DNA from: Escherichia phage AV118 | Sequence record: OR352948.1 | DNA: 64,000 bases | Reading direction: 5' to 3' (one strand) | Shown: piece by piece, positions 28,084 to 52,815 of the stretch | How the letters are laid out: the number at the start of each line of letters is the position of its first letter | How positions within the stretch are numbered: the first letter of the stretch is position 1 | Program-made: the position numbers and the translations under genes | Notes under the pieces: model-generated | The model's input: only the letters and a program-made list of their open reading frames with translations | Database searches by the model: none | Told to the model about the DNA's origin: nothing

Positions 28084-28084
28084 A

Positions 28085-31203: not shown

Positions 31204-31205
31204 AA

Positions 31206-31424: not shown

Positions 31425-31452
31425 TTTGTTCTCCTCTTGTTTTGATAGGTCT

Positions 31453-31481: not shown

Positions 31482-31529
31482 TACTTTTTAAAAATATTTT
31501 AACCCCCTAAAGGGACCCGAAGGCCCTTA

Positions 31530-32989: not shown

Positions 32990-32998
32990 AATAATTCC

Positions 32999-33529: not shown

Positions 33530-33530
33530 A

Positions 33531-33710
33531 TTATTCACCAATTAAAGTTTCAACAAAATTCACCAAAGCATCCTGGCAAGCATCAACCTGATTTTCATAA
33601 AAGTCTCCGTTATCATTTACCGCGTGATAAGCTACAACATTCAAATCTGAATCGGCTTCACGTAGGTCACGGATAAGGTCCATCAATTTATTAGCTTGTT
33701 CACGGGTCAT
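33531..33710 (-). CDS. small hypothetical protein (59 aa)
   Basis: Manual translation MTREQANKLMDLIRDLREADSDL...; below ORF-track cutoff. Confidence 0.35.
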   Translation of the reverse strand: MTREQANKLMDLIRDLREADSDLNVVAYHAVNDNGDFYENQVDACQDALVNFVETLIGE

Positions 33711-33845
33711 TTTACCATACTCGTTTCAATAAGATTCACTATGCCGTTTACCATGTTATAAGTAAACATCGGATAATTGTATTGTATCACAACGTATACG
33801 ATAAGCAAAAGTTTCATTTTGTTCTCCATTTGTTTTGATAGGACT

Positions 33846-33874
33846 ACTATAACATAGTCCTATCAAGATGTAAA
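33846..33874 (-). promoter_or_regulatory. T4-early-type promoter TTTACA-N17-TATAGT inside inverted repeat GATAGGACTA/TAGTCCTATC
   Basis: Palindromic promoter-family element. Confidence 0.5.
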
Positions 33875-34081
33875 CTACCGATTATGTTTTAAATGTTGAT
33901 AAAGTTCTTCAACTTGTTTAGGGTCCAAAACAATTAGGTCATTTTCTTGGCGAAGATAAATCCATCCCTTATCTCCAGGACCATTTTTACAAAACATCAC
34001 CGCCATATCATCATCTTCAGCGCTTTCAGGTAAAAGTTCAAGTACACCGTCTTCAGATTTTCCAGTATAATCGTAAAGCAT
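33875..34081 (-). CDS. hypothetical protein
   Basis: 68 aa from ATG 34081, SD GAGGA. Confidence 0.45.
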   Translation of the reverse strand: MLYDYTGKSEDGVLELLPESAEDDDMAVMFCKNGPGDKGWIYLRQENDLIVLDPKQVEELYQHLKHNR

Positions 34082-34088
34082 AATATCC

Positions 34089-34268
34089 TCACATAATCTC
34101 GTTAACATACATTTGCAATTCGGTGTGGGCGTCAGCCATCTTTTTCATAGCTCTGTTAATGTCGATGTCTCCATCTTCGCAACCATGAGCATTTTCCCAA
34201 TCAGATACCGCATTAGCGTACTCTTCAATCAAAAACATTAACTTAGAAATTTTTTCTTTACGTGACAT
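34089..34268 (-). CDS. hypothetical protein
   Basis: 59 aa from ATG 34268 (MSRKEKIS...), SD AGAGGAG. Confidence 0.45.
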   Translation of the reverse strand: MSRKEKISKLMFLIEEYANAVSDWENAHGCEDGDIDINRAMKKMADAHTELQMYVNEIM

Positions 34269-34295
34269 AACGTTCTCCTCTAGTAAGTAAGGTTT

Positions 34296-34324
34296 ACTAT
34301 AACACAACCTGAGGAGAAGTAAAC
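34296..34324 (-). promoter_or_regulatory. T4-early-type promoter GTTTAC-N17-TATAGT
   Basis: Palindromic promoter-family element. Confidence 0.5.
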
Positions 34325-34333
34325 TGATAGATG

Positions 34334-34363
34334 CCAAAAAGCCCCGACCTTTCGGAAGGGGCT
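34334..34363 (-). terminator. intrinsic terminator hairpin + U-run
   Basis: AGCCCC...GGGGCT stem with GAAA-type loop followed by T5 on minus strand; 34-bp element identical to 49455..49488. Confidence 0.55.
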
Positions 34364-34369
34364 AGTAAA

Positions 34370-34672
34370 TTAGATAGATGTAGGCTCTAATTTTATTTTC
34401 ATGAACTCGGCAAATTGTCTGGCAGTTTTTATGCCTTGTTCATGACATTCAAATGCATCATCACAGGGACTATTTTTGTAATGCTTTGCCATATACTTAT
34501 AGAATTTTTCAGAATTCTCGACATTTTGAATTTCAAACAAAGTATATACGTTTTTAATCCCTGATTCCATAAAGTTATCAAAATATGGGTCGATATATGC
34601 AGTACCAACGATAGGAGTTGTTGCTGCAAAAAACCCCAGCATCGCCATGACAGCTATCGCTCTTAAGGCCAT
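34370..34672 (-). CDS. rI: lysis-inhibition regulator RI-like periplasmic protein
   Basis: 100 aa; N-terminal signal/anchor MALRAIAVMAMLGFFAA; position next to tk as T4 rI. Confidence 0.6.
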   Translation of the reverse strand: MALRAIAVMAMLGFFAATTPIVGTAYIDPYFDNFMESGIKNVYTLFEIQNVENSEKFYKYMAKHYKNSPCDDAFECHEQGIKTARQFAEFMKIKLEPTSI

Positions 34673-34684
34673 ATAGGCCTCCTG

Positions 34685-34897
34685 TTAATTTTGGCCAGTA
34701 TTTATTTTTCGCCTTTGGACGGCCTTAACATCTGTGAGGTATTTTTCCAGCTTGCGCTTGCGTGTATAATCAGCTTTAGAACCAGTTTGACGGATATCCT
34801 CGTTTAAATGAGAAATAGAATGTCCTAATTCTCTTCGGATTTCATCCAATTGGGTTACAGTAAGATTACGAAGTTGTCTTTCGTTTAATTGCTGCAT
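34685..34897 (-). CDS. hypothetical protein
   Basis: 70-aa ORF between tk and rI. Confidence 0.5.
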
Positions 34898-34924
34898 ATA
34901 TACCTCTTGGTTAGATATTAGTAT

Positions 34925-35506
34925 TTATAACAACCCTGTCAAATCGTTCCAATGCTTCCGGCATAATGACACATATCTATCGGTATCACCAATTTCAATT
35001 TGACTGCCATCTGTAATTGGAAGTCCGTCTTCCGTGACTCTAGCTACCATTGTGGCCTTTTTACCACAATGACAAACACCTTTAAGTTCAACAAGTTTAT
35101 CGGCAATAGCCATTAATGCTTGAGAACCTTCAAATAGATTACCTTTAAAATCTGTTCGTAGTCCATATGCCATTACCGGCACATTGTACACGTCAACAAT
35201 ACGACTAAGTTGATACACCTTTTCAGTAGTTAAGAACTGAGCTTCGTCAACAAATACACAATGAATATCCTTTTGTGCTGCAGCCCATTTATAAAATTCA
35301 AAGATATCCATGTCTTTTGTAATTATATTGGCATCCTGACGAATACCAATACGAGAGACTATTTCACCTTTTGAATCACGAGTATCAATAGCCGGTTTAA
35401 GAACTAATACACCCATGCCACGTTCTTTATAGTTATGTGCGGCAGTAAGTAATGAAGCAGACTTACCAGCGTTCATAGCGGCATAGGTAAAAATTAAACT
35501 AGCCAT
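34925..35506 (-). CDS. tk: thymidine kinase
   Basis: 193 aa; P-loop NAGKSASL, Zn-binding CHCGKKA...C motifs. Confidence 0.95.
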   Translation of the reverse strand: MASLIFTYAAMNAGKSASLLTAAHNYKERGMGVLVLKPAIDTRDSKGEIVSRIGIRQDANIITKDMDIFEFYKWAAAQKDIHCVFVDEAQFLTTEKVYQLSRIVDVYNVPVMAYGLRTDFKGNLFEGSQALMAIADKLVELKGVCHCGKKATMVARVTEDGLPITDGSQIEIGDTDRYVSLCRKHWNDLTGLL

Positions 35507-35515
35507 AAGAGTCCC

Positions 35516-35698
35516 TTATAGTGAATTCACGTAGTCAATGAGTTCTTGTTCTTTCCTGTCAAATGATTCCAACAATGCTTGATATTCTTCGTCCGTCAAA
35601 GGAGCATATTCATCATACGCATTGGTGGCTGCTTGCTCATCCAATAGGTCATGGATAAGTTCAAACAGTTTAGTTTTCTCTTCTTTAGTCAATTTCAT
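35516..35698 (-). CDS. hypothetical acidic protein
   Basis: 60-aa ORF. Confidence 0.45.
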   Translation of the reverse strand: MKLTKEEKTKLFELIHDLLDEQAATNAYDEYAPLTDEEYQALLESFDRKEQELIDYVNSL

Positions 35699-35922
35699 TT
35701 AGGTTCACCTTCTTTAACGAAATCTGGGTAAGGGTAAAATCCTGAGTAAAACCCTTCACCTTTATGATTGCTACAACCTTTGTTCGAACAGTAACACCAA
35801 TAATCAAAATCACAAGCCATTTCGTCATTGCATAAAGCAAAAACTACAGGCCATTCGCATTTTTCGCATTTAGCACCTGTAAGAATTTTTGTTTGACTCA
35901 TAGCCATGTCACCTTTAAGCAA
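35695..35922 (-). CDS. Cys-rich small protein (putative Zn-binding)
   Basis: 75 aa with about 10 Cys (CEKCEW, CYCSNKGC). Confidence 0.5.
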   Translation of the reverse strand: MLKGDMAMSQTKILTGAKCEKCEWPVVFALCNDEMACDFDYWCYCSNKGCSNHKGEGFYSGFYPYPDFVKEGEPK

Positions 35923-36125
35923 TATTCTTCTACATGTTGTTTACGGCCTTTCTTATCAATAAAGGTATATTCAACGAATGTTCCGATGTAGTCTTTATCT
36001 ACATCATGTGGACTATTAATTGGACATTTAGTACGACAAATGCGTTCCCATTGACGAATAATTACTGCCTTATTCTTTGGATCATATGGATGTGGATAAT
36101 GTATATTCATAATAACGGTTCCCAA
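35898..36125 (-). CDS. hypothetical protein
   Basis: 75-aa ORF. Confidence 0.45.
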   Translation of the reverse strand: MGTVIMNIHYPHPYDPKNKAVIIRQWERICRTKCPINSPHDVDKDYIGTFVEYTFIDKKGRKQHVEEYCLKVTWL

Positions 36126-40003: not shown

Positions 40004-40306
40004 TTATTTACCTTTAATTACTTTAGCTGCTTCGATAGCCGCTTGCTGAAGGTCATCCATAGACATACCAAATTTAGAAGCAAAGTTATCAATTTTCTTT
40101 TCGACAGCATTCAAAGGCTTGGCCTGTTTACCTTCATTAGCGCCAGGAAGAGCGAGAATACGCTCTTTGTCAATATAAAGGCTTACAAGTTTCTTACGGT
40201 CTTTATCGGACAAATCATGAAATGAATGGGCCTTTTTATTTATAGCGGCTTCTAATTTACCTGCACTCACTCGCGCTTCAGTAATAAATTCTTGATATGT
40301 TTTCAT
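40004..40306 (-). CDS. capsid internal protein with capsid-targeting sequence (IPII/IPIII-like)
   Basis: 100 aa; N-terminal CTS MKTYQEFITEA. Confidence 0.8.
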   Translation of the reverse strand: MKTYQEFITEARVSAGKLEAAINKKAHSFHDLSDKDRKKLVSLYIDKERILALPGANEGKQAKPLNAVEKKIDNFASKFGMSMDDLQQAAIEAAKVIKGK

Positions 40307-40336
40307 TTTTGTTTCCTTGTTTGTTTTGATAGAGTA

Positions 40337-40366
40337 ATTATACCATATTAATACTTAAGCGTAAAC
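40337..40366 (-). promoter_or_regulatory. T4-early-type promoter (GTTTAC-N18-TATAAT)
   Basis: Promoter-family element. Confidence 0.45.
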
Positions 40367-40369
40367 AAT

Positions 40370-40630
40370 TTAAGCTTTACCGCCAGAAATAATTCCGAAG
40401 TTGTTAAAATCGTATCCAATATCGTCAACATCTACTTTAGGACTTACTACAACATAAGCAATTTCACTACGTTTTGCATAGGTGTTGATTTCTTTACCAT
40501 CGCCACCTAAGAAAGAATACCCATTACGTTTTAATGAGCCAAAGTCTTCGGCATCACCAATGAAAGCTTTAACTTTAAATTTAGGACCTTTGGCATCTGC
40601 TTCAGCGATAAATTCTTGATACATTTTCAT
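40370..40630 (-). CDS. capsid internal protein with capsid-targeting sequence
   Basis: 86 aa; N-terminal CTS MKMYQEFIAEA. Confidence 0.75.
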   Translation of the reverse strand: MKMYQEFIAEADAKGPKFKVKAFIGDAEDFGSLKRNGYSFLGGDGKEINTYAKRSEIAYVVVSPKVDVDDIGYDFNNFGIISGGKA

Positions 40631-40636
40631 TTTTCC

Positions 40637-41050
40637 TTAGTAAATTGATTTACCATAGTATTTGTACCAAGTCGGACGTTGAGCAATTTTTTCATCTAAG
40701 CGTGCTTGACTTATCGCAATGGACGCTTCAGACGGGACGTAATTATTACGAAATTCTATAGGAATGTCGGAAATATCCTGGACAGTCGTGTCCTTGATTT
40801 TGAAACCACGTTTCAAGCATTCAGCGATTAGTTCGATTTGACGTAAACGTAAAAATTCGAGTTTGTCGTAAAAGAATGTTACGTGACCTGTGCCTAAGAT
40901 AAATGTTGGAGAGATTTTAAAATCCTTTACACGTTTACCGTTTTGAACATGTTTACGGACTGCACCAAATACGCGTGGTAATTCACGATACTCAGCCATA
41001 AGATGTTGGTCGGTCAGTTCAGAAACAAGTGTTAAATTGATACGGGTCAT
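40637..41050 (-). CDS. denV: endonuclease V (pyrimidine dimer DNA glycosylase)
   Basis: 138 aa from ATG 41050 ([12 protein letters not shown]...), SD GGAGGAAA; sequence matches T4 DenV. Confidence 0.9.
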
Positions 41051-41077
41051 AATTTCCTCCAAGTAGTTGATGAATGT

Positions 41078-41107
41078 ATAGTATCAAAGTCCTTGGAGGA
41101 AGTAAAC
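41078..41107 (-). promoter_or_regulatory. T4-early-type promoter (GTTTAC + TACTAT)
   Basis: Promoter-family element. Confidence 0.45.
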
Positions 41108-41108
41108 A

Positions 41109-41390
41109 CTATTTTTCTGAAGCGCCTGAAATATATTTTTCAAGACGTTGTTTCATTAGCGAGCCGTTCTTAGCGATTTCTTCCGGTTTATCGCACATAC
41201 GTAACAAGGCTTCAAGCTTAGCGATATCGCTGGTACGTTCAAATTTGCGAGTATCTATCTTACTAGCAAGTTCAGAAATACGTGCTAATAGACTTTCAGC
41301 TTCAACCAAAGCTGCACCTAGCTTAGTTGCAAATGTGTCAGTAGCTTCATTAAGAATAGATTCTGATAAAAATTCATTGTATGTTTTCAT
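41109..41390 (-). CDS. capsid internal protein with capsid-targeting sequence
   Basis: 93 aa from ATG 41390; N-terminal [14 protein letters not shown]. Confidence 0.7.
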
Positions 41391-41875
41391 ATATACGCTT
41401 TCCAAGTTCCTGTTTTAAATGTTGAGATTACGCGTTTCGCGCGATTAGGTGTCTGACGATACCATTTAGATTGGGCTAGATTTACTGCCGCTTCGTCCCA
41501 ACGTTTCTGTTGAAGCATACGAAGAGAATTAGTAAAACCGGCGACGCCTGCTACACCCATTTGGAAGACCATATTGACCAATGCACATCGACGAACCGCA
41601 TCTAAAGAATCATATACCGGTTTAAGTTTAGCATTACCCAAGATTCCGCGAACGGCTTTATCAACGTCTTCATTAAATAGCTTTTCAGCCTCATCGAGGG
41701 TAATTGTACCGTTGCATTTACGTCCGATCATTCTGTCAAGTTCAGCTTTAGCTACGGCTAAAGACGGGTTCTTTGTTACTAAATGGCCTATGCCAATCGT
41801 CCAAAAGCCTTCAGTGTCTTTGTATAAAGTTAGTCTAAGACCTTCGTCATTACGAAGCATTTCAAATATATTCAT
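41387..41875 (-). CDS. e: endolysin (T4 lysozyme)
   Basis: 162 aa from ATG 41875 (MNIFEMLR...); catalytic E11/D20 region [14 protein letters not shown]; matches T4 e. Confidence 0.95.
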
Positions 41876-41877
41876 AA

Positions 41878-41907
41878 TACCTCCCACGTTTATAGGAGGT
41901 ATTTATT
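41878..41907 (-). promoter_or_regulatory. hairpin sequestering the endolysin SD, with late-promoter-like AATAAATA at its 5' side
   Basis: TACCTCC-loop-GGGAGGTA inverted repeat; SD GGAGG in 3' arm 5 nt before ATG. Confidence 0.5.
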
Positions 41908-41909
41908 AC

Positions 41910-42368
41910 TTATAGGAGGGTAGTGAGCACCTTATATAATGATTTGCCCATTACATATTCCCATTGAGAAGGTTTAATTAAAGCGAATGCATCAAATTCA
42001 GGAATCTGACGTCCGTCTGGGAATGTATGATAGGAATTACAAACACTGTTTCTGAATTGCTCGTGCTCTACAGGGATGGTATATAGGAACAGATGAATAT
42101 TCTTATTATCTGAGTAATGATGTTCACCTAGGTCTTTCAGGAAGGCAGGGTCATATTGTGTAAACCCAGTTTCTTCTTCGCATTCACGAATAGCGGCTTC
42201 AATAGGAGATTCGCCAGGTTCGACATGGCCTTTAGGAATATCCCACCGATGAGCTAAAGAACCTTTAGGACGAGAACCAGTTACACGCCCCATGAATAAT
42301 TCTTTATCTTCGGTAAGGAAAATAATACCGGCTGATAGTTCTTTCACTTTATTTTTCTTACTCATCAT
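41910..42368 (-). CDS. nudE: Nudix hydrolase
   Basis: 152 aa; Nudix box GHVEPGESPIEAAIRECEEETG. Confidence 0.9.
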   Translation of the reverse strand: MMSKKNKVKELSAGIIFLTEDKELFMGRVTGSRPKGSLAHRWDIPKGHVEPGESPIEAAIRECEEETGFTQYDPAFLKDLGEHHYSDNKNIHLFLYTIPVEHEQFRNSVCNSYHTFPDGRQIPEFDAFALIKPSQWEYVMGKSLYKVLTTLL

Positions 42369-42609
42369 CTCGGTCCCATGATTTGGCCATTAATTCGGAC
42401 ATAAATTCTTCAATGCGCGTTTCTTTAGATGGACTTTCACTATTAGAGACCGCAAGTTTGTAATCTGCAATAGGACAGAACATATCAAGGTCCATATTAA
42501 GGTCGTCTTTGATTTTTTCTTCTGACACATCTTTATCGTATGTGTACAGATAACTATCACATGATTCTGATTTAATGTAAATTGCTATACTCATCTCAAA
42601 TTCCTGCAT
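42358..42609 (-). CDS. hypothetical acidic protein
   Basis: 83-aa ORF. Confidence 0.45.
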   Translation of the reverse strand: MQEFEMSIAIYIKSESCDSYLYTYDKDVSEEKIKDDLNMDLDMFCPIADYKLAVSNSESPSKETRIEEFMSELMAKSWDRDDE

Positions 42610-43070
42610 TCGGTAATAAAACGTTCAACTTCATTATTCTTGGCTTTTATCTTGTCTTTATGTTCTTGTAAACTACTTTTAATAAGATTAATAATGATAG
42701 CGACAGTGCCGCCGCCAATGATGCCACCAATAATACTTACGATAGTAGATGCTAATAAGATAGCAATAATATCAACAAAACCGAAAGAACTCACCTTAGT
42801 ACTAAAAAACCATATAGACGGTACAAATATAATCCATCCTGTTATCCATTGGCACTTATTGAAAAACTTTTCAAGCTCAGCTTGAGTTGTTCGTATTACT
42901 TCATCGATAGGTTGATATCCGTTAATGTATCTGTTCACGATAATACCTGCTGACTGGTCGATTTTAAATTCTTGGCAAATATGTTTCACTAAGTATGATG
43001 GACATCCTGTCCAATCTACTGAATAGTATGAAATACCTTCATTGCCGTCGTCTATATTATTGTTAATCAT
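42591..43070 (-). CDS. membrane protein with C-terminal ERFITECR motif (FIKECR family)
   Basis: 159 aa; hydrophobic core segments; C-terminus ...EVERFITECRNLR. Confidence 0.6.
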   Translation of the reverse strand: MINNNIDDGNEGISYYSVDWTGCPSYLVKHICQEFKIDQSAGIIVNRYINGYQPIDEVIRTTQAELEKFFNKCQWITGWIIFVPSIWFFSTKVSSFGFVDIIAILLASTIVSIIGGIIGGGTVAIIINLIKSSLQEHKDKIKAKNNEVERFITECRNLR

Positions 43071-43756
43071 TACCAGCCTTCCATAGGGAATTCCAGATAA
43101 ACTTGAGCATTGACACGAATTTCATTGGTAATCTTTTTAACTCGGTCTGTATTACGAGATACACGTCCGAACCAACGCCATCCGTTACTAATTGCACGAG
43201 AACCAGTGTGCCATGTTTGCCAATCAAATTGAAGAAGAGTACGGTCTGGAGCTTCCCATTTCTCTAGTTCGCCTTTTTCGATTTTTTCGAGGACTTCTTT
43301 GTGCCACTGGCGATAGATAAGTTTGCCATCAGGAATCTGACTGAACTCTGCAGTTCCTGTTGCAAAATGAGTAGGACACACATCAGCGTTAACAAGACCA
43401 AGAATATGTTCAGACAAATAGCGAGGATTGTCATAGTCAGGTTGTCCTGCAGTAATAAAGTGTTGACCAACTGGAATATCAGGGCGTGGAACATCGTCAT
43501 GGTGATATCCAGGAATAGCAGGGTACCAGCCAGGCATCAGCATGTGGACTCGTGAATCAAATACAACATCCGAGTCTTTCCAATCGTCAGGGAGATTTTG
43601 GATAAAGCTACGAGTAATTGGACCGCCATTATCAAAAGCAAAATTCAAATCGCAATTAAAGAACATAGGCTCGTTTTTAATCTGGCCATTTTTAATCGCA
43701 TGAGCAAAACCACCTACTGCACGAGCTTGACTATTAAACACTTTAGAACTATTCAT
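43070..43756 (-). CDS. hypothetical protein
   Basis: 228-aa ORF, His/Asp-rich central region, SD GAGGAAA. Confidence 0.55.
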   Translation of the reverse strand: MNSSKVFNSQARAVGGFAHAIKNGQIKNEPMFFNCDLNFAFDNGGPITRSFIQNLPDDWKDSDVVFDSRVHMLMPGWYPAIPGYHHDDVPRPDIPVGQHFITAGQPDYDNPRYLSEHILGLVNADVCPTHFATGTAEFSQIPDGKLIYRQWHKEVLEKIEKGELEKWEAPDRTLLQFDWQTWHTGSRAISNGWRWFGRVSRNTDRVKKITNEIRVNAQVYLEFPMEGW

Positions 43757-43757
43757 A

Positions 43758-44063
43758 TTATTTTCCTCGGCATTCTTTAATGAAATTTTCTAGATTGGTA
43801 GATTCAATAGCTTTTTTACGAGCTTCTGCATGTTCTTCTTCGGACAATTTACATTTATAATTGACCCAGACATTATGGTCGAAACTAGTCGTGGCATATA
43901 ATAACAATGCTCCAACGAATAGCAAAAACGGTGATAAGAATACAAAACCAGGAACACCATCCATACTGTAAGCCTTTTGTAATACTGCAACAGAAAGAGC
44001 TGCGTAAAAAGGTGATGCAAATATTGTTAAAAGACCAATTCGGTTGGTTTCGCCTAATTTCAT
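43758..44063 (-). CDS. membrane protein with C-terminal ENFIKECR motif (FIKECR family)
   Basis: 101 aa; two hydrophobic helices; C-terminus ...LENFIKECRGK. Confidence 0.6.
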   Translation of the reverse strand: MKLGETNRIGLLTIFASPFYAALSVAVLQKAYSMDGVPGFVFLSPFLLFVGALLLYATTSFDHNVWVNYKCKLSEEEHAEARKKAIESTNLENFIKECRGK

Positions 44064-44091
44064 AATATTCTCCTCATGTTTTAATAGGACT

Positions 44092-44121
44092 ACTATAACA
44101 TAATCCTATAATTATGTAAAC
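44092..44121 (-). promoter_or_regulatory. T4-early-type promoter in palindromic element
   Basis: GTTTAC + TATAGT inside GATAGGACTA-type inverted repeat. Confidence 0.45.
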
Positions 44122-44133
44122 AGTTTTGCGAAA

Positions 44134-45090
44134 TTATTTGAAAGGTTTTACCATATGAAAATTTTCTTTAAACCGTTTGATGTAATCATTTTTGCCGAGC
44201 TTATGATACATAGCCACTACTTCATAATAGTTCTCGTATGCGTACTCACGGAACCAACCGGAGGTGATGCTTGTGCAGACTTTTTCTAATGCCATCATGA
44301 AACTGGCTTCAGGGTTAATTTTAAAGTCATTAGGAATTTGAGAACGTTCTAATGCTAGTACACATGATTCTTCATATACACCAGCCAGTTTAATCATTTC
44401 GGGTAACGATTCGAACTTCTCGCGTGAGGTCATGACTTCAGAACCGTCTTTCATATAAAATGTATACGCTGGACGGTCTGTTAGTGCAATGGCTTCATGA
44501 ATAGTATCATGGTCATATGTATAGATGTCATCTTTAAAGAACGCACTTTTAGAAGTGTCAAGAACTGGGTGAGCATAGTTCAAGGTTTCTTTCTGGCGTT
44601 TCAGCATAATTTCAGTAAGTTCATCGTTCAGTGTAACACCTTTACCACGAAGATACTGAATATGGTTCATAGTCTTTAAAAAGAATGGATTATTTTTCTT
44701 GAAACGATGAGACATCTTAATTGCAAGACCTATCTCAGGAGTTGCCCAGTAAAACCCGTTCAAACGGTCTTTAGTCAAATTTTTCTTGGCGTATTTTAAA
44801 AGGTCATAAGAAGACGTGAAATCTTCAGGAGTGAGTTCACCGACTAATTCACGGACATTAGTGATTGCCGGAACAATATATGCTTCAAAATGAGTTTCGC
44901 GTCCATTATGGAAGCATTTGAAAACTTGGACATCAGGGTTATCTTGGTGAACATATACACCCATCATTTGATTTTTGAATGCATTCCAAGAACCTTGGTC
45001 CGCAATAAAGTCCCAATCACTATTTTTGATAGCGCTAGAATCAATAAGACCGTGATAGTGAAGTGCACGAGAACCAATAACTAACATCAT
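44134..45090 (-). CDS. hypothetical protein (possible divergent nucleotidyltransferase-like N-terminus)
   Basis: 318 aa; N-term GSRALHYHGL...SDWDF loosely resembles GS...DxD. Confidence 0.5.
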   Translation of the reverse strand: MMLVIGSRALHYHGLIDSSAIKNSDWDFIADQGSWNAFKNQMMGVYVHQDNPDVQVFKCFHNGRETHFEAYIVPAITNVRELVGELTPEDFTSSYDLLKYAKKNLTKDRLNGFYWATPEIGLAIKMSHRFKKNNPFFLKTMNHIQYLRGKGVTLNDELTEIMLKRQKETLNYAHPVLDTSKSAFFKDDIYTYDHDTIHEAIALTDRPAYTFYMKDGSEVMTSREKFESLPEMIKLAGVYEESCVLALERSQIPNDFKINPEASFMMALEKVCTSITSGWFREYAYENYYEVVAMYHKLGKNDYIKRFKENFHMVKPFK

Positions 45091-45115
45091 AATAATTTCC
45101 TCGAATTTAGATTAC

Positions 45116-45367
45116 TTAAATTTCGCGACATGCGATATCATATTCATCCCAGAGGTCATCATGTGAAGCCTCTACCAATGGAACGATTGTACCGTTTATG
45201 TCTTCATTATAAGGGCAAATTGTACAGTGCGCATCTTCGAATCGGATGCCTTTGTGTTCAGATTTTTTATAACGCATATCGAATATCTTTGCAAACTTTT
45301 CACGAGTAATGGTTTTAGCAACCACTTTGGTTCCAATACTTTCATAATAAATCATCGTGGACTCCAT
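45116..45367 (-). CDS. hypothetical protein (C-terminus ...DIACREI)
   Basis: 83-aa ORF. Confidence 0.5.
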   Translation of the reverse strand: MESTMIYYESIGTKVVAKTITREKFAKIFDMRYKKSEHKGIRFEDAHCTICPYNEDINGTIVPLVEASHDDLWDEYDIACREI

Positions 45368-45383
45368 TTAATTTGATAGGACT

Positions 45384-45413
45384 ACTATAACATAGCCCTA
45401 TCTTGTTGTAAAC
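45384..45413 (-). promoter_or_regulatory. T4-early-type promoter in palindromic element
   Basis: GTTTAC + TATAGT inside GATAGGACTA-type inverted repeat. Confidence 0.45.
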
Positions 45414-45417
45414 TGTT

Positions 45418-45615
45418 TTAGCAAGAATAACTAGATGATACCCAGCCTTGAACAGTGATACTATTGTGGGATAATGAGATCGCGTCCTGGAGATTCAGAC
45501 CTGCGTTATCTTCAATCCATAATGTAACTTCTTCGCGTTCTTCTGTTGCAATTTGGAACAGGTTTTCCAGGGCAGCTACTGCCGTACGTACAGCACAATC
45601 TAATTCACGAGACAT
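45418..45615 (-). CDS. small protein ending ...GWVSSSYSC (WVSSSxxC family)
   Basis: 65-aa ORF; last tandem paralog. Confidence 0.55.
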   Translation of the reverse strand: MSRELDCAVRTAVAALENLFQIATEEREEVTLWIEDNAGLNLQDAISLSHNSITVQGWVSSSYSC

Positions 45616-45624
45616 ATCGTTTCC

Positions 45625-45897
45625 TTAGCAAGTGTGAGAAGATGCGACCCAACCACCAGTTTCGAGGCTCAGGTTGTAGTCGTATTGGTAAACGTCAGCC
45701 CATTCAGCATAGCCGTTTTTTGTACAACGTTCAAGATCGGCTTTAAGATGTCCGGGTGAATGATAGGTTCCACCCATACCATAAGCTGGGTACAAGTCGA
45801 ATGTTGTGTTTTGTTTATCAGCAATTTCTTTGGCAGCCTCAATAGCTGCATAGATTTTTGCTACAGCTTCAGCCAGTTCGGTTTGTTCTTTAGACAT
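45625..45897 (-). CDS. small protein ending ...GWVASSHTC (WVSSSxxC family)
   Basis: 90-aa ORF; SD TAAGGAA overlaps upstream stop. Confidence 0.55.
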   Translation of the reverse strand: MSKEQTELAEAVAKIYAAIEAAKEIADKQNTTFDLYPAYGMGGTYHSPGHLKADLERCTKNGYAEWADVYQYDYNLSLETGGWVASSHTC

Positions 45898-45906
45898 AAT
45901 GATTCC

Positions 45907-46212
45907 TTAGCACAACGCAGAAGACGAAACCCAAGCACCTTCAGTAATAACGTAACCATTACCTTCACGCTTAACATCGCCACCGTTATTTTCAATTTCA
46001 TTTTTCATCCACTGGGATACGATTTCACCCTTAGGATAATAAGTACGACCGCTACCATAATCACCTACAGAAAATGATACGGCATATTGGTCTGCGATCT
46101 TTGTTGCTTCTTCTTCGATACGTTCAGATTGATTCAGAAGTTTATAAATTGCATCTGAAGCAGATTTGGCATCATTAAACTCTGGTACTTTAATTTCAAT
46201 AATCTTACTCAT
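45907..46212 (-). CDS. small protein ending ...AWVSSSALC (WVSSSxxC family)
   Basis: 101-aa ORF; ATGA coupling with upstream membrane-protein gene. Confidence 0.55.
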   Translation of the reverse strand: MSKIIEIKVPEFNDAKSASDAIYKLLNQSERIEEEATKIADQYAVSFSVGDYGSGRTYYPKGEIVSQWMKNEIENNGGDVKREGNGYVITEGAWVSSSALC

Positions 46213-46568
46213 TTTCTACATTCCTTAATAAAGTTTTCGATTGTTTCATTTTCACGTCTAGCTAGGAGTTCATTATAACTAATCATTTGAGAAGCGTAAA
46301 TCTTTTTATTTTTCTTGTTATGGTAAATAAAGTCATAGTAAAAATAGACTACAGTACAAAATGATGCGATGGATGCAAAGGCTTGGGTATACCGTAAGTC
46401 CTGCCATTGGTCTGTGAATCCGCCAGTGTTCCCTATAAATCCTAACACAACGCCGTCAATAAGAAATCCAACTAATCCAAAGGCAAATCCCATGCCAATA
46501 CTCATAATAAAAATTAGAATGTTCTCACCAAGAGAAGGCCATACGGTTAAGAGTTGAGGCTTTTGCAT
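46209..46568 (-). CDS. membrane protein with C-terminal ENFIKECR motif (FIKECR family)
   Basis: 119 aa; hydrophobic N-terminal half; C-terminus ...IENFIKECRK. Confidence 0.6.
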   Translation of the reverse strand: MQKPQLLTVWPSLGENILIFIMSIGMGFAFGLVGFLIDGVVLGFIGNTGGFTDQWQDLRYTQAFASIASFCTVVYFYYDFIYHNKKNKKIYASQMISYNELLARRENETIENFIKECRK

Positions 46569-46909
46569 CTTATTTCCTTAACGAATTCCATAGCTTCTTC
46601 ATATTCATACTTTTTAACAACTTCATCATACTGAGCTTGGGCTTTTGCGCACTGAACTTTCCATTCACGAACTCGAGCTCTGTGATGACGGCCTTGGTAC
46701 CAATATCCCACTCAGTTAATAGGCATTAATAAAAATGGCACAATAAACGACCCGGCTATAATAAGTAAAAACACTGCATCAGACGATATAACTTTATTGG
46801 AATCTAAAATAGCTCCTATAATCATAAAGATTAAAAATGCTAAAGCTAAAATAGGGCCAAATAATACTTCGTTTGGGATTAATTTACGTTTGTATTCGTA
46901 TGCCCAGGC
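46569..46909 (-). pseudogene. putative decayed FIKECR-family membrane-protein gene
   Basis: No ATG; hydrophobic reading frame interrupted by TGA, followed in another frame by ...EEAMEFVKEIR tail; no ORF-track call. Confidence 0.3.
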
Positions 46910-47533
46910 TTAATTGGCATGTACAGGGTTGGCTTTGACATATTCTCTACATTCCATAATAAATTGCTCAAGGATTAAATTGTTAGTGAAATTAGGACTA
47001 ACAACCATAGTTTCATAAAGCGCATCAATAGCACTTAAAGCATCAACTCTTTTAAGCAAAGGCTTGCCTTCATACATAGTTTCAGAATCGACGATTAAAG
47101 TGAAGTAGTATTTTTTATTATCGACTAGAACTTCTGTATCGATATAAAACATATTAGACCTCAGAAGCTTATCTCTAAAACCATAATAATCTTTAGAGCG
47201 TTCGCTGATATATTCCCATTCAGTGTTTAAACAACAAACAGACCATGTAGGAGCAACGAAATCGGTGAATCTAATATCATGGTCTGCAACTAGTTTAGCA
47301 ATAGCTCCGATATCATGAATCATAATACCTGGGGCTAATAAAGATTTTCTGCTATGGCTAGCCGTTTTCTCAGTAGTCTCATAAGAAGACGACCAGTACC
47401 ATTTACGTCCAGTTGCAACATATCGTAATGAATCAACTAAAGACGTAGGTGGATTTACCTTATCTCGGAACTCTTCGAACATTGAGTCAATATCATTATT
47501 TTGGTTTCGCATGTTAACTCCTTTATTATCCAA
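46910..47533 (-). CDS. hypothetical protein carrying EQFIMECR motif near C-terminus
   Basis: 207-aa ORF, not obviously membrane-embedded. Confidence 0.55.
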   Translation of the reverse strand: MDNKGVNMRNQNNDIDSMFEEFRDKVNPPTSLVDSLRYVATGRKWYWSSSYETTEKTASHSRKSLLAPGIMIHDIGAIAKLVADHDIRFTDFVAPTWSVCCLNTEWEYISERSKDYYGFRDKLLRSNMFYIDTEVLVDNKKYYFTLIVDSETMYEGKPLLKRVDALSAIDALYETMVVSPNFTNNLILEQFIMECREYVKANPVHAN

Positions 47534-47554
47534 AAGGAGGACCGGAGTCCTCCG
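47531..47554 (-). terminator. intrinsic terminator hairpin + U-run
   Basis: GGAGGAC-CGGA-GTCCTCC followed by T4 on minus strand. Confidence 0.5.
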
Positions 47555-47561
47555 TATTATT

Positions 47562-48155
47562 TTATTTCAAAGAGTTAATATATTCTTGTACATCAGCAGA
47601 AGTGGTTTCGACACCAGCTGGAGTGCCATTGAACGTTTCAACACGAGTCAGAGTGTCTTCGATATCAACCTTAGTCAGTGCAGCGATTTCAATTACATCA
47701 TCGGCCGTAGAGATACCAAGGGCATTAGCTGCTCGAGTTTCACGAATGTATTCGAGTTTGATTGCCAGATTCTGACGAGCATCATCAAGTTCAACCACCT
47801 TACGAGCAATTTCAATTCGCATAGCGGCATACCCGTCAGCTTTTGTATTAAGTTGTTCGGCAGTTCGACGATACAGAAGACCAAGCTTAGCATGCATGGT
47901 AACATCTTGTCCTTCAGCCAAGAGCTTACGAATTTCACGTTCCTTAGAAGCGGCTTGCTTGTTCTTTTCATTAACAAGTTCGCGAATACGTTTTTCTTCA
48001 TTAATAGATTTAACAGAAGCCGTTTTTAGTTCTTTGATTTGGGTAATCAACTTATCTGCAGCTGCGTTATACTGTTCTTCGACAGTCAGATTTTTAGCCA
48101 TAGCAGTACCCAGTTTAGTGCGGATGAATTCAACAAGTTTTTTCAGTGTGTTCAT
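47562..48155 (-). CDS. coiled-coil protein (weak PspA/IM30-like resemblance)
   Basis: 197 aa from ATG 48155; long heptad-rich helices; follows duplicated early promoter. Confidence 0.5.
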
Positions 48156-48196
48156 ATTATTACCTTTCAATTGGTGGTTTATTATCCAATGAGAGC

Positions 48197-48226
48197 ATTA
48201 TACTCTGCTCTCAAGAGTTTGTAAAT
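48197..48226 (-). promoter_or_regulatory. sigma70/T4-early-type promoter TTTACA-N17-TATAAT
   Basis: 49-bp element identical to 19506..19554. Confidence 0.6.
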
Positions 48227-48453
48227 TATTTTTTAATCAAATTGACATAAAACTCGGCGTCTTCCGGGTGCATGCCTTCACAGTATTCTTCAACCATGAA
48301 CTTCTTAACGGCTTCATAAGGACCACTCAGATTAAGCTCAGTTGTCCAGAACTTGGAATCTTGGACTGAATCGATACGAACTTCAGGGTGACGGTTGCGA
48401 ATAACTTCTTCAGTGTATTCATAATCAACGACATCAATACTAACTGTAGCCAT
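48226..48453 (-). CDS. hypothetical acidic protein
   Basis: 75-aa ORF. Confidence 0.5.
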   Translation of the reverse strand: MATVSIDVVDYEYTEEVIRNRHPEVRIDSVQDSKFWTTELNLSGPYEAVKKFMVEEYCEGMHPEDAEFYVNLIKK

Positions 48454-48520
48454 TTTGTTTCTCCTCTGTAGTTGATAAGTCTATAGTATCATAGACCATA
48501 GTTGTTGTACATCATTATTT

Positions 48521-48826
48521 TTAATTTTTCCAACTTAACAACTTGTAGTGTCCTTCATTAATACGTGGTTTATCCCAAGAAATACTAATATATGATTCAC
48601 TGTCAATAGAAGTCGTTTGGTTTTTCTCTACCGTAAGACCTTCACTTTCCAGCCATTCAATAGTATTTGCGCATAAATCAGAAGAACACCTCATTGGAAA
48701 CCGGCAAGATTTTTCACCTTTAGCTGCAGTGTTATACATCTTTTCTAAAATACGCTTTTGCACGTTTTTAAAAATAGTTTCAGCAGATTCTTCAGATTTT
48801 TTATTCAGTTCAGTGTAAAGACTCAT
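48521..48826 (-). CDS. hypothetical protein
   Basis: 101-aa ORF. Confidence 0.5.
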   Translation of the reverse strand: MSLYTELNKKSEESAETIFKNVQKRILEKMYNTAAKGEKSCRFPMRCSSDLCANTIEWLESEGLTVEKNQTTSIDSESYISISWDKPRINEGHYKLLSWKN

Positions 48827-48854
48827 AACATTTTCCTCTATGGTTGATAAGTCT

Positions 48855-48883
48855 ATAGTATCATGTCCTTAGAAGAAGTAAAC
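48855..48883 (-). promoter_or_regulatory. T4-early-type promoter GTTTAC-N17-TACTAT
   Basis: Promoter-family element. Confidence 0.5.
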
Positions 48884-48949
48884 ATCTTTATGAAATATTT
48901 TTATGCCCTAGATACCAAAAGGCCCCAACCATAAGGAAGGGGCATTCTA

Positions 48950-49414
48950 TTATTTAATTTGTTTAGCAGACCAGATACGGTCTTTAATAAGTTTTTGGAT
49001 ATCTTCAACATACTCAAGGCTATGAGCGTGAGGATTATCTTTGAAGCTATGTGCTCGTGCCAGTTTCTGTCCTTCTGTTTTGATTACTAAAAGCTCTTTA
49101 AGAATTGCTTCATACTTAGAAATAATTCCTTTGGCGATATTTTTTTCTTGAGCTGCTTTAGGGTCCACTTTTGGCGCAGGTGCTTTACCTGTAGCTTTCT
49201 GGAACAATTCACCTGATGCAGCTAGGCTTTTAAAAACTCGGCTAACAGTATTAGCATTAGTAAAACCTTCGGCTTTAAAATCTCTAATAAAACGGAAACG
49301 TTCTTCATCAGAGGCGTCTTTGTAAGAATATTTACCTGCTTGAATTGCTGCAATCGCAGCGGCTTTTACATCTGAACTAGATTGTTCAGTCAAAAATTCA
49401 GCGTATGATTTCAT
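48950..49414 (-). CDS. capsid internal protein with capsid-targeting sequence
   Basis: 154 aa; N-terminal CTS MKSYAEFLTEQ. Confidence 0.7.
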   Translation of the reverse strand: MKSYAEFLTEQSSSDVKAAAIAAIQAGKYSYKDASDEERFRFIRDFKAEGFTNANTVSRVFKSLAASGELFQKATGKAPAPKVDPKAAQEKNIAKGIISKYEAILKELLVIKTEGQKLARAHSFKDNPHAHSLEYVEDIQKLIKDRIWSAKQIK

Positions 49415-49457
49415 GTTGCTTTTCCTAAGTTAATTAACTTATCTATTTATTATTATG

Positions 49458-49487
49458 CCAAAAAGCCCCGACCTTTCGGAAGGGGCT
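49458..49487 (-). terminator. intrinsic terminator hairpin + U-run
   Basis: Same 34-bp sequence as at 34331..34364. Confidence 0.55.
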
Positions 49488-49798
49488 AAGCCTTGCGGCA
49501 ACCTTGTCGGGGTTCCACCTGCTAAGGCAAGTGTTTGTACGAAACGCCGGGATTCGAACCCGGTTATTAAGCAGTTGACGCTACTCAATATTTTTAAAAG
49601 GCCATATCTCGACCATATCCGAACGTTCCGTCAAAAACGCTACTCGGCTTACGGCAAAGATATTTCCTCGAATCGATAATTCGGTGCGCCGTTTCTGCTG
49701 TGATATAAGGGGGCATTAACAAAACATAAAGATTTATTAATGCCAGTCCTTACTCAGGGAACATCAGTCCGACGACTTACCGGTAGCGACCCGGCTTC

Positions 49799-50143
49799 TT
49801 ATTTTGACATATCATCAATTTGCTCTCGACGCCGACGCCATAGATTAATCGCTTCATAAACACATTCTGCGTTTGGTATATGACGGCAATAATATAATGA
49901 TTCGCGTTTCTGGAATCGATGTTGCAATTGGATTTCGTTTAAAAGGTCTTTACGGTCAAAGTATTCAAAACTAGTTAACCTGGAACGGTTTTTAATGAAC
50001 TTCCAATGACCAAATTCATTTTGAACATAGATGTAATCTGCATGTTGGTATAACAAATTAATCAATCGGTCTGAAATAACTGTATCATGTTCGTTAAAAT
50101 AAAACGTTAAATCATGAACTACTAAGTAAACATTACCTTTCAT
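49799..50143 (-). CDS. hypothetical protein
   Basis: 114 aa from ATG 50143 with SD GAGGAAA; ORF-track extension would overlap tRNA-Arg. Confidence 0.5.
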   Translation of the reverse strand: MKGNVYLVVHDLTFYFNEHDTVISDRLINLLYQHADYIYVQNEFGHWKFIKNRSRLTSFEYFDRKDLLNEIQLQHRFQKRESLYYCRHIPNAECVYEAINLWRRRREQIDDMSK

Positions 50144-50161
50144 ATTTTCCTCACTTAAAAT

Positions 50162-50238
<77 letters not shown>

Positions 50239-50338
50239 ATGATGCGGCTTTGGGTGTTTCAGTGTTACTCGTTTGTAGGTTCTACTTTTAACCCTTATTC
50301 GAACAACTTACCTACCTAAGAGCGTACTCACCGCGAAT

Positions 50339-50413
50339 TGGTGGCCCTGGCTGGTTTCGATCCAGCTACCTATCAGTTATGAGCTGACAGCTCTCCCATT
50401 GAGCTACAGGGCC
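50339..50413 (-). tRNA. tRNA with anticodon CAU (elongator Met or Ile2/lysidine)
   Basis: Manual cloverleaf: acceptor GGCCCTG/CAGGGCC, D-stem GCTC/GAGC, anticodon loop CTCATAA, T-stem GCTGG/CCAGC, encoded CCA. Confidence 0.75.
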
Positions 50414-50509
50414 TAAATAACTTTCTATTATGAAAGGCACTTGAGGGAGCACCTTTGGTAATAGAGGGTAGATTAATAATAACACATAATTCTTAAAGCA
50501 AATTACGTT

Positions 50510-50800
50510 TTACCGTACCATATTAATGTAGTTATATTCAATGCAACGTAATTTCAAAGGGTTCTTGAAAATATCATATTCAAGAGGGCCTTTTTCTGTT
50601 TCAATAAAGAAATCAAAGTTAACTGTGTTAAATTTAACGTCTTCACAGAGTAATTTAACTTGTGAAGATGAACGGTCGATATAAACCTTTTCAACCTCAA
50701 AGATAGTCAGAATACCGTAGTCATTAACCAGTGCTTTAGCTGCACGTTGGTCGCTTTCATATCCGTTCTCAATGGACGATACTTTAGCATAAAGAATCAT
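50510..50800 (-). CDS. hypothetical protein
   Basis: 96-aa ORF. Confidence 0.5.
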   Translation of the reverse strand: MILYAKVSSIENGYESDQRAAKALVNDYGILTIFEVEKVYIDRSSSQVKLLCEDVKFNTVNFDFFIETEKGPLEYDIFKNPLKLRCIEYNYINMVR

Positions 50801-51159
50801 GAATGTTCCACCATTTCAAAGGTATGAGCATCAACAATATGATACCAGTCAAAATTTTCTTCCGCGTTTTTATAAATTTCGCGAAGAGCTTCAACAGTTT
50901 TTCCTGTAGCAACAAGATCGTCAATACCACCAAGAGGATAACAGTAATAACCAGCAAACAGAAGGAAATTAATAGTTTCTGTAGGTTCTGGATGCAGAAC
51001 ACCGTTATCATCTACCACTTCAAAGAAAGTGTAAGAAGGAGTACAAGTTTTAATCCAAGCCCATGCTTGGGCTGCTGAATCAAATGGACTGCGTATCAAA
51101 CGACAATCAGGGTCTTTAGAAGGATTTGCTTCAAAATCCGCATATACGTGATATTTCAT
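50797..51159 (-). CDS. hypothetical protein
   Basis: 120 aa from ATG 51159, SD AGGTGA. Confidence 0.5.
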   Translation of the reverse strand: MKYHVYADFEANPSKDPDCRLIRSPFDSAAQAWAWIKTCTPSYTFFEVVDDNGVLHPEPTETINFLLFAGYYCYPLGGIDDLVATGKTVEALREIYKNAEENFDWYHIVDAHTFEMVEHS

Positions 51160-51160
51160 T

Positions 51161-51367
51161 TTACTCACCTTTTGCAATTTTATCCATAACGATAGCGATT
51201 AAGCCGATTAGAAATGCTACTACCAATGAGATAGAATTTTCTGTTGTTGTCAGTAGTCCACAAATGAATCCTACAAACATCGAAAAACTAAAAGCCATTG
51301 AAGCAATTACTACAGCAACATTACGAATCAGTTCAGCGCGTTTCATTTTATTTCTCCATTTACTCAT
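51161..51367 (-). CDS. small membrane protein
   Basis: 68 aa; two hydrophobic helices. Confidence 0.5.
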   Translation of the reverse strand: MSKWRNKMKRAELIRNVAVVIASMAFSFSMFVGFICGLLTTTENSISLVVAFLIGLIAIVMDKIAKGE

Positions 51368-51383
51368 TTGTTTTGATAGGACT

Positions 51384-51413
51384 ACTATAACATATCCCTA
51401 TAGGCTTGTATAC
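51384..51413 (-). promoter_or_regulatory. T4-early-type promoter-like palindromic element (weaker -35)
   Basis: GATAGGACTACTATAACAT element; -35-like GTATAC. Confidence 0.35.
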
Positions 51414-51415
51414 CT

Positions 51416-51679
51416 TTATTTCAAATATATTGCGTATTTTTTATAGCCACCAGGCTCGTGTCGAAGACCTTTATCATTCGCAAAACGTTGAATGTTATTG
51501 AACTGATTTTCATCAAGTTCGGATGTGTCAAATACGAAAAAGTTTCGTTTGTTACCAAGCGTGATATGCGGAGTTAAGTCAATGTTATACAAATTAAGAA
51601 TATCAGCAATAACCTGATTGACCGCTTTGTTAATTTTCACACCAGATGATTCTGAGATGAATTCGTTGAAAGTTTTCAT
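51416..51679 (-). CDS. capsid internal protein with capsid-targeting sequence
   Basis: 87 aa from ATG 51679; N-terminal CTS MKTFNEFISES. Confidence 0.7.
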   Translation of the reverse strand: MKTFNEFISESSGVKINKAVNQVIADILNLYNIDLTPHITLGNKRNFFVFDTSELDENQFNNIQRFANDKGLRHEPGGYKKYAIYLK

Positions 51680-51711
51680 TTTAGGTTCCATTTGGTTGTT
51701 TTGATAGGACT

Positions 51712-51741
51712 ACTATAACATAGTCCTATCGTGTTGTAAAT
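51712..51741 (-). promoter_or_regulatory. T4-early-type promoter-like palindromic element
   Basis: GATAGGACTA/TAGTCCTATC inverted repeat with TATAGT and ATTTAC. Confidence 0.4.
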
Positions 51742-52052
51742 TATTTTATGCCTTTAGAAGAAATGGTATTTTGGCGTTTGACCCCTGTTTGTGAAAAATC
51801 GTGGTTATCGATTTGGTCGACTCGCATAACACCAAATGCAGATTTAATTTTAGCCTTTGAACCTTTTTTAATACTAATTACCATATAAGTATCATTTTTC
51901 TTATATTCGAAATTTGTTACTTCAACGCCTTGATTAGAAATTGACTTAATAATAGCATTAGCGTATTCATCATCTAACGGACCGGTGGTGTTAATAATAA
52001 AATTTTTATCGGCTTTAGTAGCTTCAGCGATAAACTCTTGATAAGTTTTCAT
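51741..52052 (-). CDS. capsid internal protein with capsid-targeting sequence (IPI-position)
   Basis: 103 aa; N-terminal CTS MKTYQEFIAEA; adjacent to 57B as T4 ipI. Confidence 0.75.
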   Translation of the reverse strand: MKTYQEFIAEATKADKNFIINTTGPLDDEYANAIIKSISNQGVEVTNFEYKKNDTYMVISIKKGSKAKIKSAFGVMRVDQIDNHDFSQTGVKRQNTISSKGIK

Positions 52053-52097
52053 TTTATTTCCTTGAGGTTGTTTATTTGATAGGATGATAGTAACACA

Positions 52098-52127
52098 CCA
52101 TCATCCTTATGTAAACTGTTTTGTGAA
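52098..52127 (-). promoter_or_regulatory. T4-early-type promoter (GTTTAC + TACTAT)
   Basis: Palindromic promoter-family element. Confidence 0.45.
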
Positions 52128-52129
52128 AA

Positions 52130-52815
<686 letters not shown>

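Follow-up and report, generated by a model that had tools for sequence, protein, structure and literature searches.

In the 64,000-nucleotide stretch of Escherichia phage AV118 DNA that was analyzed here (sequence record OR352948.1; the window), six genes, called A to F in the following, encode proteins that begin with the capsid-targeting sequence (CTS) known from the internal proteins (IPs) of phage T4. It is quite likely that all six are T-even internal proteins, which would be packaged into the phage head, injected into the host together with the DNA, and would counter host defences there. Judged by sequence comparison, five of the six genes belong to named or annotated internal head protein families. 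The genes, the N-terminal tag, the cassette behavior of the loci, and the anti-restriction hypothesis are already published or annotated, and the residual novelty consists in the unannotated family of gene D and in the third locus at which this gene is found.

Six Genes With a Capsid-Targeting Sequence

The six genes and their predicted products are the following.

40004-40306, minus strand: gene A, 100 amino acids (aa); CTS MKTYQEFITE; predicted mature form of 90 aa with an isoelectric point (pI) of 9.7
40370-40630, minus strand: gene B, 86 aa; CTS MKMYQEFIAE; mature pI 6.4
41109-41390, minus strand: gene C, 93 aa; CTS followed by a second L-x-E site (ILNE, followed by A)
48950-49414, minus strand: gene D, 154 aa; CTS MKSYAEFLTE; mature pI 9.6
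51416-51679, minus strand: gene E, 87 aa from MKTFNEFISE; mature pI 9.0
51741-52052, minus strand: gene F, 103 aa; CTS MKTYQEFIAE; mature pI 9.5

The presence of six open reading frames (ORFs) with this tag had been claimed in a sequence-only reading of the same DNA, and all six do exist; the positions given there are their low ends, i.e., the stop codons, because all six ORFs are on the minus strand and have their start codons at the high ends. In a six-frame translation of the whole window, the strict motif MK(T/S/M)(Y/F)xEF(I/L)xE is matched exactly six times. It occurred in none of 200 shuffles of the window (a looser motif occurred 0.05 times on average in 100 shuffles), and a chance origin of the motif was therefore rejected. 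Outside of the six genes, the pattern [YF]xEF[ILV]xE is found nowhere else in the window. The 30-nucleotide (nt) segments coding for the motif share a mean pairwise identity of 75%, and the following 60 nt one of 33%. The bodies of the six proteins show no mutual similarity beyond the CTS, except for a weak relation between B and F (29% over 65 aa), which bears out the earlier remark on divergent bodies.

Aromatic residues are present at positions 4 and 7 of the CTS in all six genes. The (I/L)-x-E motif for processing by the protease gp21 occupies residues 8-10 and reads, from A to F, ITE, IAE, LSE, LTE, ISE, and IAE, the residue after the predicted cut being A, A, S, Q, S, and A, respectively. 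Mutagenesis of T4 IPIII assigned residues 4 and 7 of the CTS to targeting and residues 8 and 10 to cleavage by gp21 (PMC9026906), and the aromatic residues 4 and 7 as well as I/L-8 and E-10 of the six genes match these positions. With pI values of 9.0-9.7, mature A, D, E, and F are basic, and they are rich in lysine. For two genes, a mechanical ORF list extends the reading frame further upstream, to a TTG at 41405 for C and to an ATG at 51691 (MEPKM...) for E. In E, a GGAA Shine-Dalgarno-like element lies ahead of the MK.. start, spaced as in A and F; in C, the MK.. ATG shares bases with the stop codon of the lysozyme gene e (ATGA).

Family Membership and Genomic Loci

The bodies of A, B, C, E, and F are homologous to named or annotated Ip families, and internal head or virion protein families of PHROG cover these five, whereas the body of D is homologous to none of them and groups in phrog_2280 of 'unknown function.' A is 93% identical to T4 IPII over 100 of 100 aa (E=5e-66) and matches phrog_7857 'internal virion protein' (E=4.5e-55); its orthologs in phages mogra and SF are annotated ipII. 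B is 96.5% identical to RB69 p125, annotated 'internal head protein' (phrog_2667, E=4e-21), and its family comprises 217 phage records, mostly from Mosigvirus. C is 91% identical to RB69 p127, also annotated 'internal head protein' (phrog_3499, E=2e-46), and about 48% identical to Tequatrovirus genes annotated 'ipV: internal head protein.' E (phrog_7673 'internal head protein,' E=5e-49; 181 records) has an ortholog annotated Ip9 in mogra and occupies the slot of ipI in RB69 and T4, and F, named Ip7 in NCBI, RB32, and BFVD records, is 98% identical to RB69 p156. The names Ip5, Ip7, and Ip9 rest on database annotation. None of the six genes is disrupted, and their identity to intact orthologs of relatives is at least 91-100%. 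For B, C, D, and E, GenBank contains proteins that are almost the same (at least 97-100% identity), and mogra encodes versions of A and F that are likewise nearly identical.

A, B, C, E, and F are situated inside the two classical ip loci, the e-denV region and the 57B-tRNA.4 region, in synteny with T4 ipII and ipIII (beside e and denV) and ipI (beside 57B), and D lies outside of them. The assignment of the genes to the T4 internal-protein class in the sequence-only reading is supported.

In Pfam and NCBIfam, the six genes had no significant family match, and none of them matches the IPI_T4 profile (PF11634) at E<=0.1, T4 IPI as positive control giving 7.3e-54. The window contains no homolog of IPI and none of IPIII (193 aa), the latter being present in phage mogra between A and B with 90% identity to T4. 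A PDB sequence search with F found nothing. In an AlphaFold2 model, F seems to consist of a beta-alpha-beta-beta-alpha-beta core (pLDDT about 90) and a disordered basic tail. Its matches in PDB and BFVD are generic ACT/ferredoxin-like domains (E>=3e-3) and Ip7 itself, and no IPI* entry is among the top 50 PDB structure matches. As the model matches only generic folds, it allows no functional inference and gives no sign of an IPI*-like fold. A literature word search for Ip7/Ip9 returned irrelevant papers only, and in a search for RB32ORF132c no paper was found that mentions this ORF.

Proposed Function Against Host Defences

Each IP of T4 is packaged in hundreds of copies, which are ejected into the host on infection (PMC9026906). 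T4 IPI* blocks GmrS/GmrD of E. coli CT596, T4 Ip2 inhibits GmrSD of ECOR21, and Ip3 inhibits that of ECOR17, with no cross-protection between them (PMC12373910). Interest in this class has been renewed since the demonstration in 2025 that Ip2 and Ip3 block distinct GmrSD enzymes. That diverse injected anti-restriction proteins may share a common targeting sequence is a published idea (Rao and Black, 2010, PMC3012670; Silas et al., 2025, PMC12373910), and the anti-restriction role put forward in the sequence-only reading is thus the accepted hypothesis for the class and has been shown for the T4 ortholog of A. At least 10 Ips are distinguished by Silas et al. (2025), who propose GmrSD variants as the targets of all proteins encoded at the ip loci (PMC12373910).

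T4 Ip2 is the closest known counterpart of A, from which it differs by seven substitutions over the full 100 aa, one of them in the CTS. Both genes are located in the same e/denV ip region, and a T4-early-type promoter lies ahead of A. The gene order is different, being e-C-denV-B-A in the window, with denV between C and B, versus e-ipIII-ipII-denV in T4, and inhibition of a cognate GmrSD enzyme has been shown for T4 Ip2 only. Because T4 Ip2 blocks GmrSD of ECOR21, A very probably inhibits a GmrSD Type IV restriction enzyme of the ECOR21/BrxU type. E and F share with IPI of T4 and RB69 the delivery principle and the locus next to 57B, and E has the upstream MEPKM... leader in common with RB69 ipI. 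The difference is that none of the six genes matches PF11634 and that Ip9 fills the IPI slot in the window. F (Ip7) and E (Ip9) are adjacent and flanked by direct repeats as in RB32, where Ip7 is annotated as 'flanked by 43 bp direct repeat, along with Ip9.'

In the mechanism that we propose, the 10-residue N-terminal CTS would dock each protein on the scaffolding core during prohead assembly, and the prohead protease gp21 would then cut after the (I/L)-x-E at residues 8-10, freeing a small mature protein within the head; in C, a second gp21 cut after ILNE, at residue 15, is possible. Packed together with the DNA, tens to hundreds of copies would be injected before any phage gene is expressed and would neutralise defences of the host against the incoming sugar-modified DNA. 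Since no phage molecules act in the cell earlier than injected internal proteins, such proteins are a natural place to look for anti-defence factors. The same delivery tag would be joined to unrelated bodies in B, C, D, E, and F, other modification-dependent nuclease subtypes being the leading guess for their targets. Genes 21 and 22 (encoding gp21 and gp22) are regarded as core genes of all Tevenvirinae, and both are located outside the 64-kb window. Like internal proteins, DarA and DarB of phage P1 are packaged in the head, injected with the DNA, and block restriction before gene expression. The Dar proteins differ in that they are large, target Type I systems, are incorporated by another pathway, and have no known sequence relationship to internal proteins.

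Gene D and a Third Cassette Site

The D family comprises 511 phage records, about 400 of them with 60-80% identity to D and, as far as sampled, mostly from Tequatrovirus-type phages; it is present in about 500 T-even genomes and absent from T4. In 40 of 40 sampled records, the homologs of D are called 'hypothetical protein' or are unannotated, and the annotation of the RB32 homolog says only 'flanked by 34 bp imperfect direct repeat.' The CTS is kept in full-length homologs and is still recognisable in distant relatives of less than 50% identity, while the body diverges; the Tequatrovirus versions possess a second L-x-E site. A D-family profile search of 1.84 billion protein representatives identified 10 proteins, the larger of which also have CTS-like N-termini, and it revealed no cellular homologs. 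According to its AlphaFold2 model (pLDDT 75, pTM 0.44), D would be all-helical, an A/P/K-rich linker connecting its two domains. A PDB fold search with this model gave no credible match; ferritin-like helical bundles were rejected as the fold of D, their matches (E>0.5, TM about 0.3) being judged spurious.

Cassette D is located directly 3' of a copy of rnaC, between rnaC and the genes on the e.8 side, and is accompanied by three elements.

48917-48943, minus strand: hairpin repeat, downstream copy flanking cassette D
49444-49451, minus strand: late-promoter-like AATAAATA, 37 nt upstream of D
49460-49486, minus strand: terminator-like G+C-rich hairpin with a T-run, upstream copy of the repeat flanking cassette D

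In RB32, a perfect late promoter TATAAATA is found at the same position, between the hairpin and the D homolog, and the AATAAATA variant also precedes gene e in the window, where T4 has TATAAATA. At the site of D, RB69 and ST2 encode a different CTS protein (p149 family), and ST2 has both in tandem. These data suggest that D is a genuine internal protein and that its locus is a third cassette site. Tentatively, and with somewhat less than even confidence, we propose that D and the p149 family define a third hypervariable ip locus, located between rnaC and the e.8-side genes, and that D is a widespread packaged and injected effector against host defence. Only two ip loci are described in the recent literature. 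D merits a place among the candidate injected proteins.

In RB69, p148 and p149 (RB69 locus 15429-15991) correspond to a single 187-aa CTS protein, which is intact in ST2 (locus 10779-11339). As they form one intact gene in ST2, the RB69 reference copy seems to be frameshifted or to contain a sequencing error.

Promoters, Flanking Repeats, and Cassette Exchange

T4-early-type promoters were defined by the pattern GTTTAC/TTTAC, 17-18 nt, TAnnnT. These promoters and the repeats with an early promoter and a stem-loop (PeSL) near the six genes are the following.

40337-40366, minus strand: T4-early-type promoter of A (GTTTAC, 18 nt, TATAAT)
51365-51429, minus strand: PeSL-type repeat directly downstream of E, at the end of the E cassette
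51693-51757, minus strand: PeSL-type repeat (early promoter plus stem-loop) between F and E; repeat family D1
51712-51740, minus strand: early promoter of E, within the PeSL-type repeat between F and E
52068-52132, minus strand: PeSL-type repeat upstream of F
52087-52116, minus strand: early promoter of F, within the PeSL-type repeat upstream of F

A T4-early-type promoter of their own is thus found only for A, E, and F, i.e., for three of the six genes and not for most of them, as had been stated earlier. B, which lacks its own promoter, starts 6 nt past the stop codon of denV, and D follows rnaC and the terminator hairpin and has only the late-promoter-like AATAAATA upstream. The 65-nt PeSL-type element is present in five copies in the window, three of which bracket E and F.

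The window derives from an RB69-like T-even phage (Mosigvirus); the identity of the region to Escherichia phage mogra is 96.9%, and many other Mosigvirus genomes are similar to it as well. Seven CTS ORFs exist in the same region of RB69 (p123, p124, p125, p127, p149, p155=ipI, and p156) and seven in mogra, including the IPIII ortholog between A and B. The DNA pattern of the tag occurs in 5-7 copies in SF, AV116, AlbertHofmann, SHSML-52-1, WFbE185, and ST2, and in 3 copies in T4. For the loci of several relatives, CTS genes were counted by DNA pattern, identities come from translated alignment, and some families were assigned by position and length only. A set of six genes is typical for the genus, since eight relatives have 5-7 of them in the same region. 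What had been described as an expanded repertoire is therefore larger than that of T4 (six versus three) but ordinary for the genus. Among these eight relatives, the bodies cluster into at least 11 families, which occur in differing combinations over three cassette sites, e-denV-vs.8, rnaC-e.8, and tRNA.4-57B.

Homology with RB69 is lost precisely at the CTS (window positions 40277 and 51653) and at 51413, the stop codon of E; in E, the nonhomologous part runs from the stop codon to a point within the CTS. Breaks at the tag and at the stop codon of E indicate that bodies have been swapped while the tag and the upstream promoter were kept. Such a swap between phages would involve recombination at the CTS-coding 30-mer or at the promoter-stem-loop repeats on one side and at repeated promoter or terminator elements on the opposite side. 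This arrangement resembles the PeSL mobile regulatory cassettes (Arbiol et al., 2010, PMC2839356; Comeau et al., 2014, PMC4122927) in that 65-nt repeats bracket E and F and in that the cassette junctions with RB69 fall at PeSL-type elements and at the CTS, and it differs from them in that cassette D is bracketed by terminator hairpins.

Two more PeSL-type copies are situated at 44073-44137 and 45365-45429, and further copies of the repeated early-promoter elements, the second of which is of a GTTTAC...TGATACTATA type, at 41054-41108, 48459-48492, and 48831-48884. These copies precede small hypothetical genes in the interval from e to the tRNAs and mark this whole stretch as a cassette-shuffling region.

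DNA Modification and Alternative Explanations

Positions 1-11795 of the window are 97.4% identical to RB69 24271-36066, and an RB69-type arabinosylation cluster (homologs of RB69 p046-p055, about 97% identity) occupies 1-6330 and includes arabinose-5-phosphate isomerase-like and nucleotidyltransferase-like genes. In view of this cluster, the DNA of phage AV118 almost certainly carries arabinosylated cytosine, which has been shown for RB69 and phage NP (PMC6024577; PMC13390438). GmrSD-family enzymes attack arabinosylated DNA of Mosigvirus, phage NP of this genus is restricted by them, and RB69 IPI confers protection on RB69 (PMC6024577; PMC13390438). The premise of the sequence-only reading, a DNA modification different from that of T4, holds. 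The further claim that the internal proteins are matched to this modification is unsupported because relatives of all six genes occur outside Mosigvirus, those of at least five in Tequatrovirus records. Homologs of D, E, F, and C are encoded in Tequatrovirus phages with glucosylated hydroxymethylcytosine (RB32, PST, and Geo), and homologs of B extend beyond Mosigvirus, for example to Salmonella phage Melville.

It is accordingly very unlikely that the gene set as such is tailored to arabinosyl-cytosine DNA and aimed at defences recognising that modification. Such tailoring would fit with the arabinosylation cluster in the window, with the different action of GmrSD enzymes on arabinosylated versus glucosylated DNA (PMC6024577), and with the fact that B is mostly confined to Mosigvirus. 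It does not agree with the 93% identity of A to T4 Ip2, with about 400 homologs of D at 60-80% identity in what are, when sampled, mostly Tequatrovirus-type phages, with the co-occurrence of Ip7 and Ip9 in RB32, or with the presence of C in Tequatrovirus records at 98% identity and, as ipV, at 48%; also, known IPs bind the enzyme and not the DNA. A mainly capsid-related role of the six proteins, as basic counter-ions, in DNA condensation, or as helpers of scaffold assembly, as has been proposed for T4 IPIII, would be compatible with our explanation and is, as the principal function, rather unlikely. The basic and lysine-rich character of mature A, D, E, and F would be expected for it, IP lysines touch DNA phosphates, and a T4 IPIII mutant has a smaller burst and more polyheads, loss of IPIII slowing head assembly (PMC9026906; PMC3012670); the lack of GmrSD inhibition by ip4-10, discussed below, also points in this direction. 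However, a generic structural function does not predict unrelated folds, cassette replacement from strain to strain, and dispensability, B and C are not basic, and specific anti-restriction targets are now known for all three T4 IPs. There is also a small chance that one or more of the six (the best candidates being D and the promoter-less B and C) are left out of the head and represent early cytoplasmic proteins or decaying cassettes with an ancestral N-terminus. Decay within the family is seen in RB69, where p127 has a degenerate CTS and p148/p149, intact in ST2, is frameshifted, and D has never been annotated as an internal protein. Against this stand the intactness of all six genes and their at least 91-100% identity to intact orthologs, the intact CTS of C in the window, and, for D, a CTS that is kept below 50% identity despite divergence of the body, as well as the canonical late promoter of the RB32 homolog.

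Several points weigh against our preferred explanation, i.e., that the six genes encode packaged and injected anti-defence proteins. Products of ip4-10 of T4-like phages did not reproducibly inhibit an active GmrSD panel (Silas et al., 2025, PMC12373910), a result obtained with glucosylated T-even phages. By name, this series should include relatives of Ip5, Ip7, and Ip9, which leaves the Type IV target of C, E, and F unproven. Expression of the mature proteins against type IV restriction, as suggested in the sequence-only reading, has in this way been carried out in part, and no reproducible inhibition was obtained. A virion proteome of a Mosigvirus determined by mass spectrometry was not found in our literature search, and packaging, cleavage, and injection of all six proteins would follow from T4 by analogy. 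B and C are near-neutral (pI about 6.3), unlike the basic classical IPs. In the case of D, Gln is an unusual residue after the predicted cleavage site, the position of the gene is outside both classical ip loci, and its late-promoter-like element is one base off the consensus. Finally, the consensus late promoter TATAAATA is found directly upstream of none of the six genes. T4 ipI, ipII, and ipIII are also without TATAAATA directly upstream and have the same early promoter and stem-loop; because of this shared early-promoter-only arrangement, the missing TATAAATA was rejected as an argument against a role in the virion.

Other Features of the Window

The CTS of RB69 p127 is degenerate (MKTYMNFYQN), and that of its ortholog C in the window is intact. 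Homologs of the T4 stable RNAs are present as rnaC (49538-49676, minus strand; 137 of 139 positions identical to T4) and rnaD (49683-49799, minus strand), neither of which is reported by an Rfam family. They are located downstream of tRNA-Arg(tct) and tRNA-Met(cat), at 50162-50238 and 50339-50413 on the minus strand, and, unlike in T4, a 114-aa ORF (49799-50143) lies between tRNA-Arg and rnaD.

Compared with RB69, the window contains two insertions of about 0.9 kb on the minus strand, one at 11818-12717 between gene 45 and rpbA and another at 16570-17442 after gene 47. The product encoded by each insertion has about 290-300 aa and a Y..YIGS motif at its N-terminus, and that of the second gives a sub-threshold match to GIY-YIG in Pfam (E=0.005). 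Both proteins are probably seg-like homing endonucleases.

At 45418-46212 on the minus strand, three small paralogous ORFs (65, 90, and 101 aa) are arranged in tandem, all ending in ...GWV(S/A)SS..C, and a 48-nt direct repeat marks their junctions (45610-45657 and 45892-45939). These paralogs correspond to RB69 p136-p139, where one copy seems to be split.

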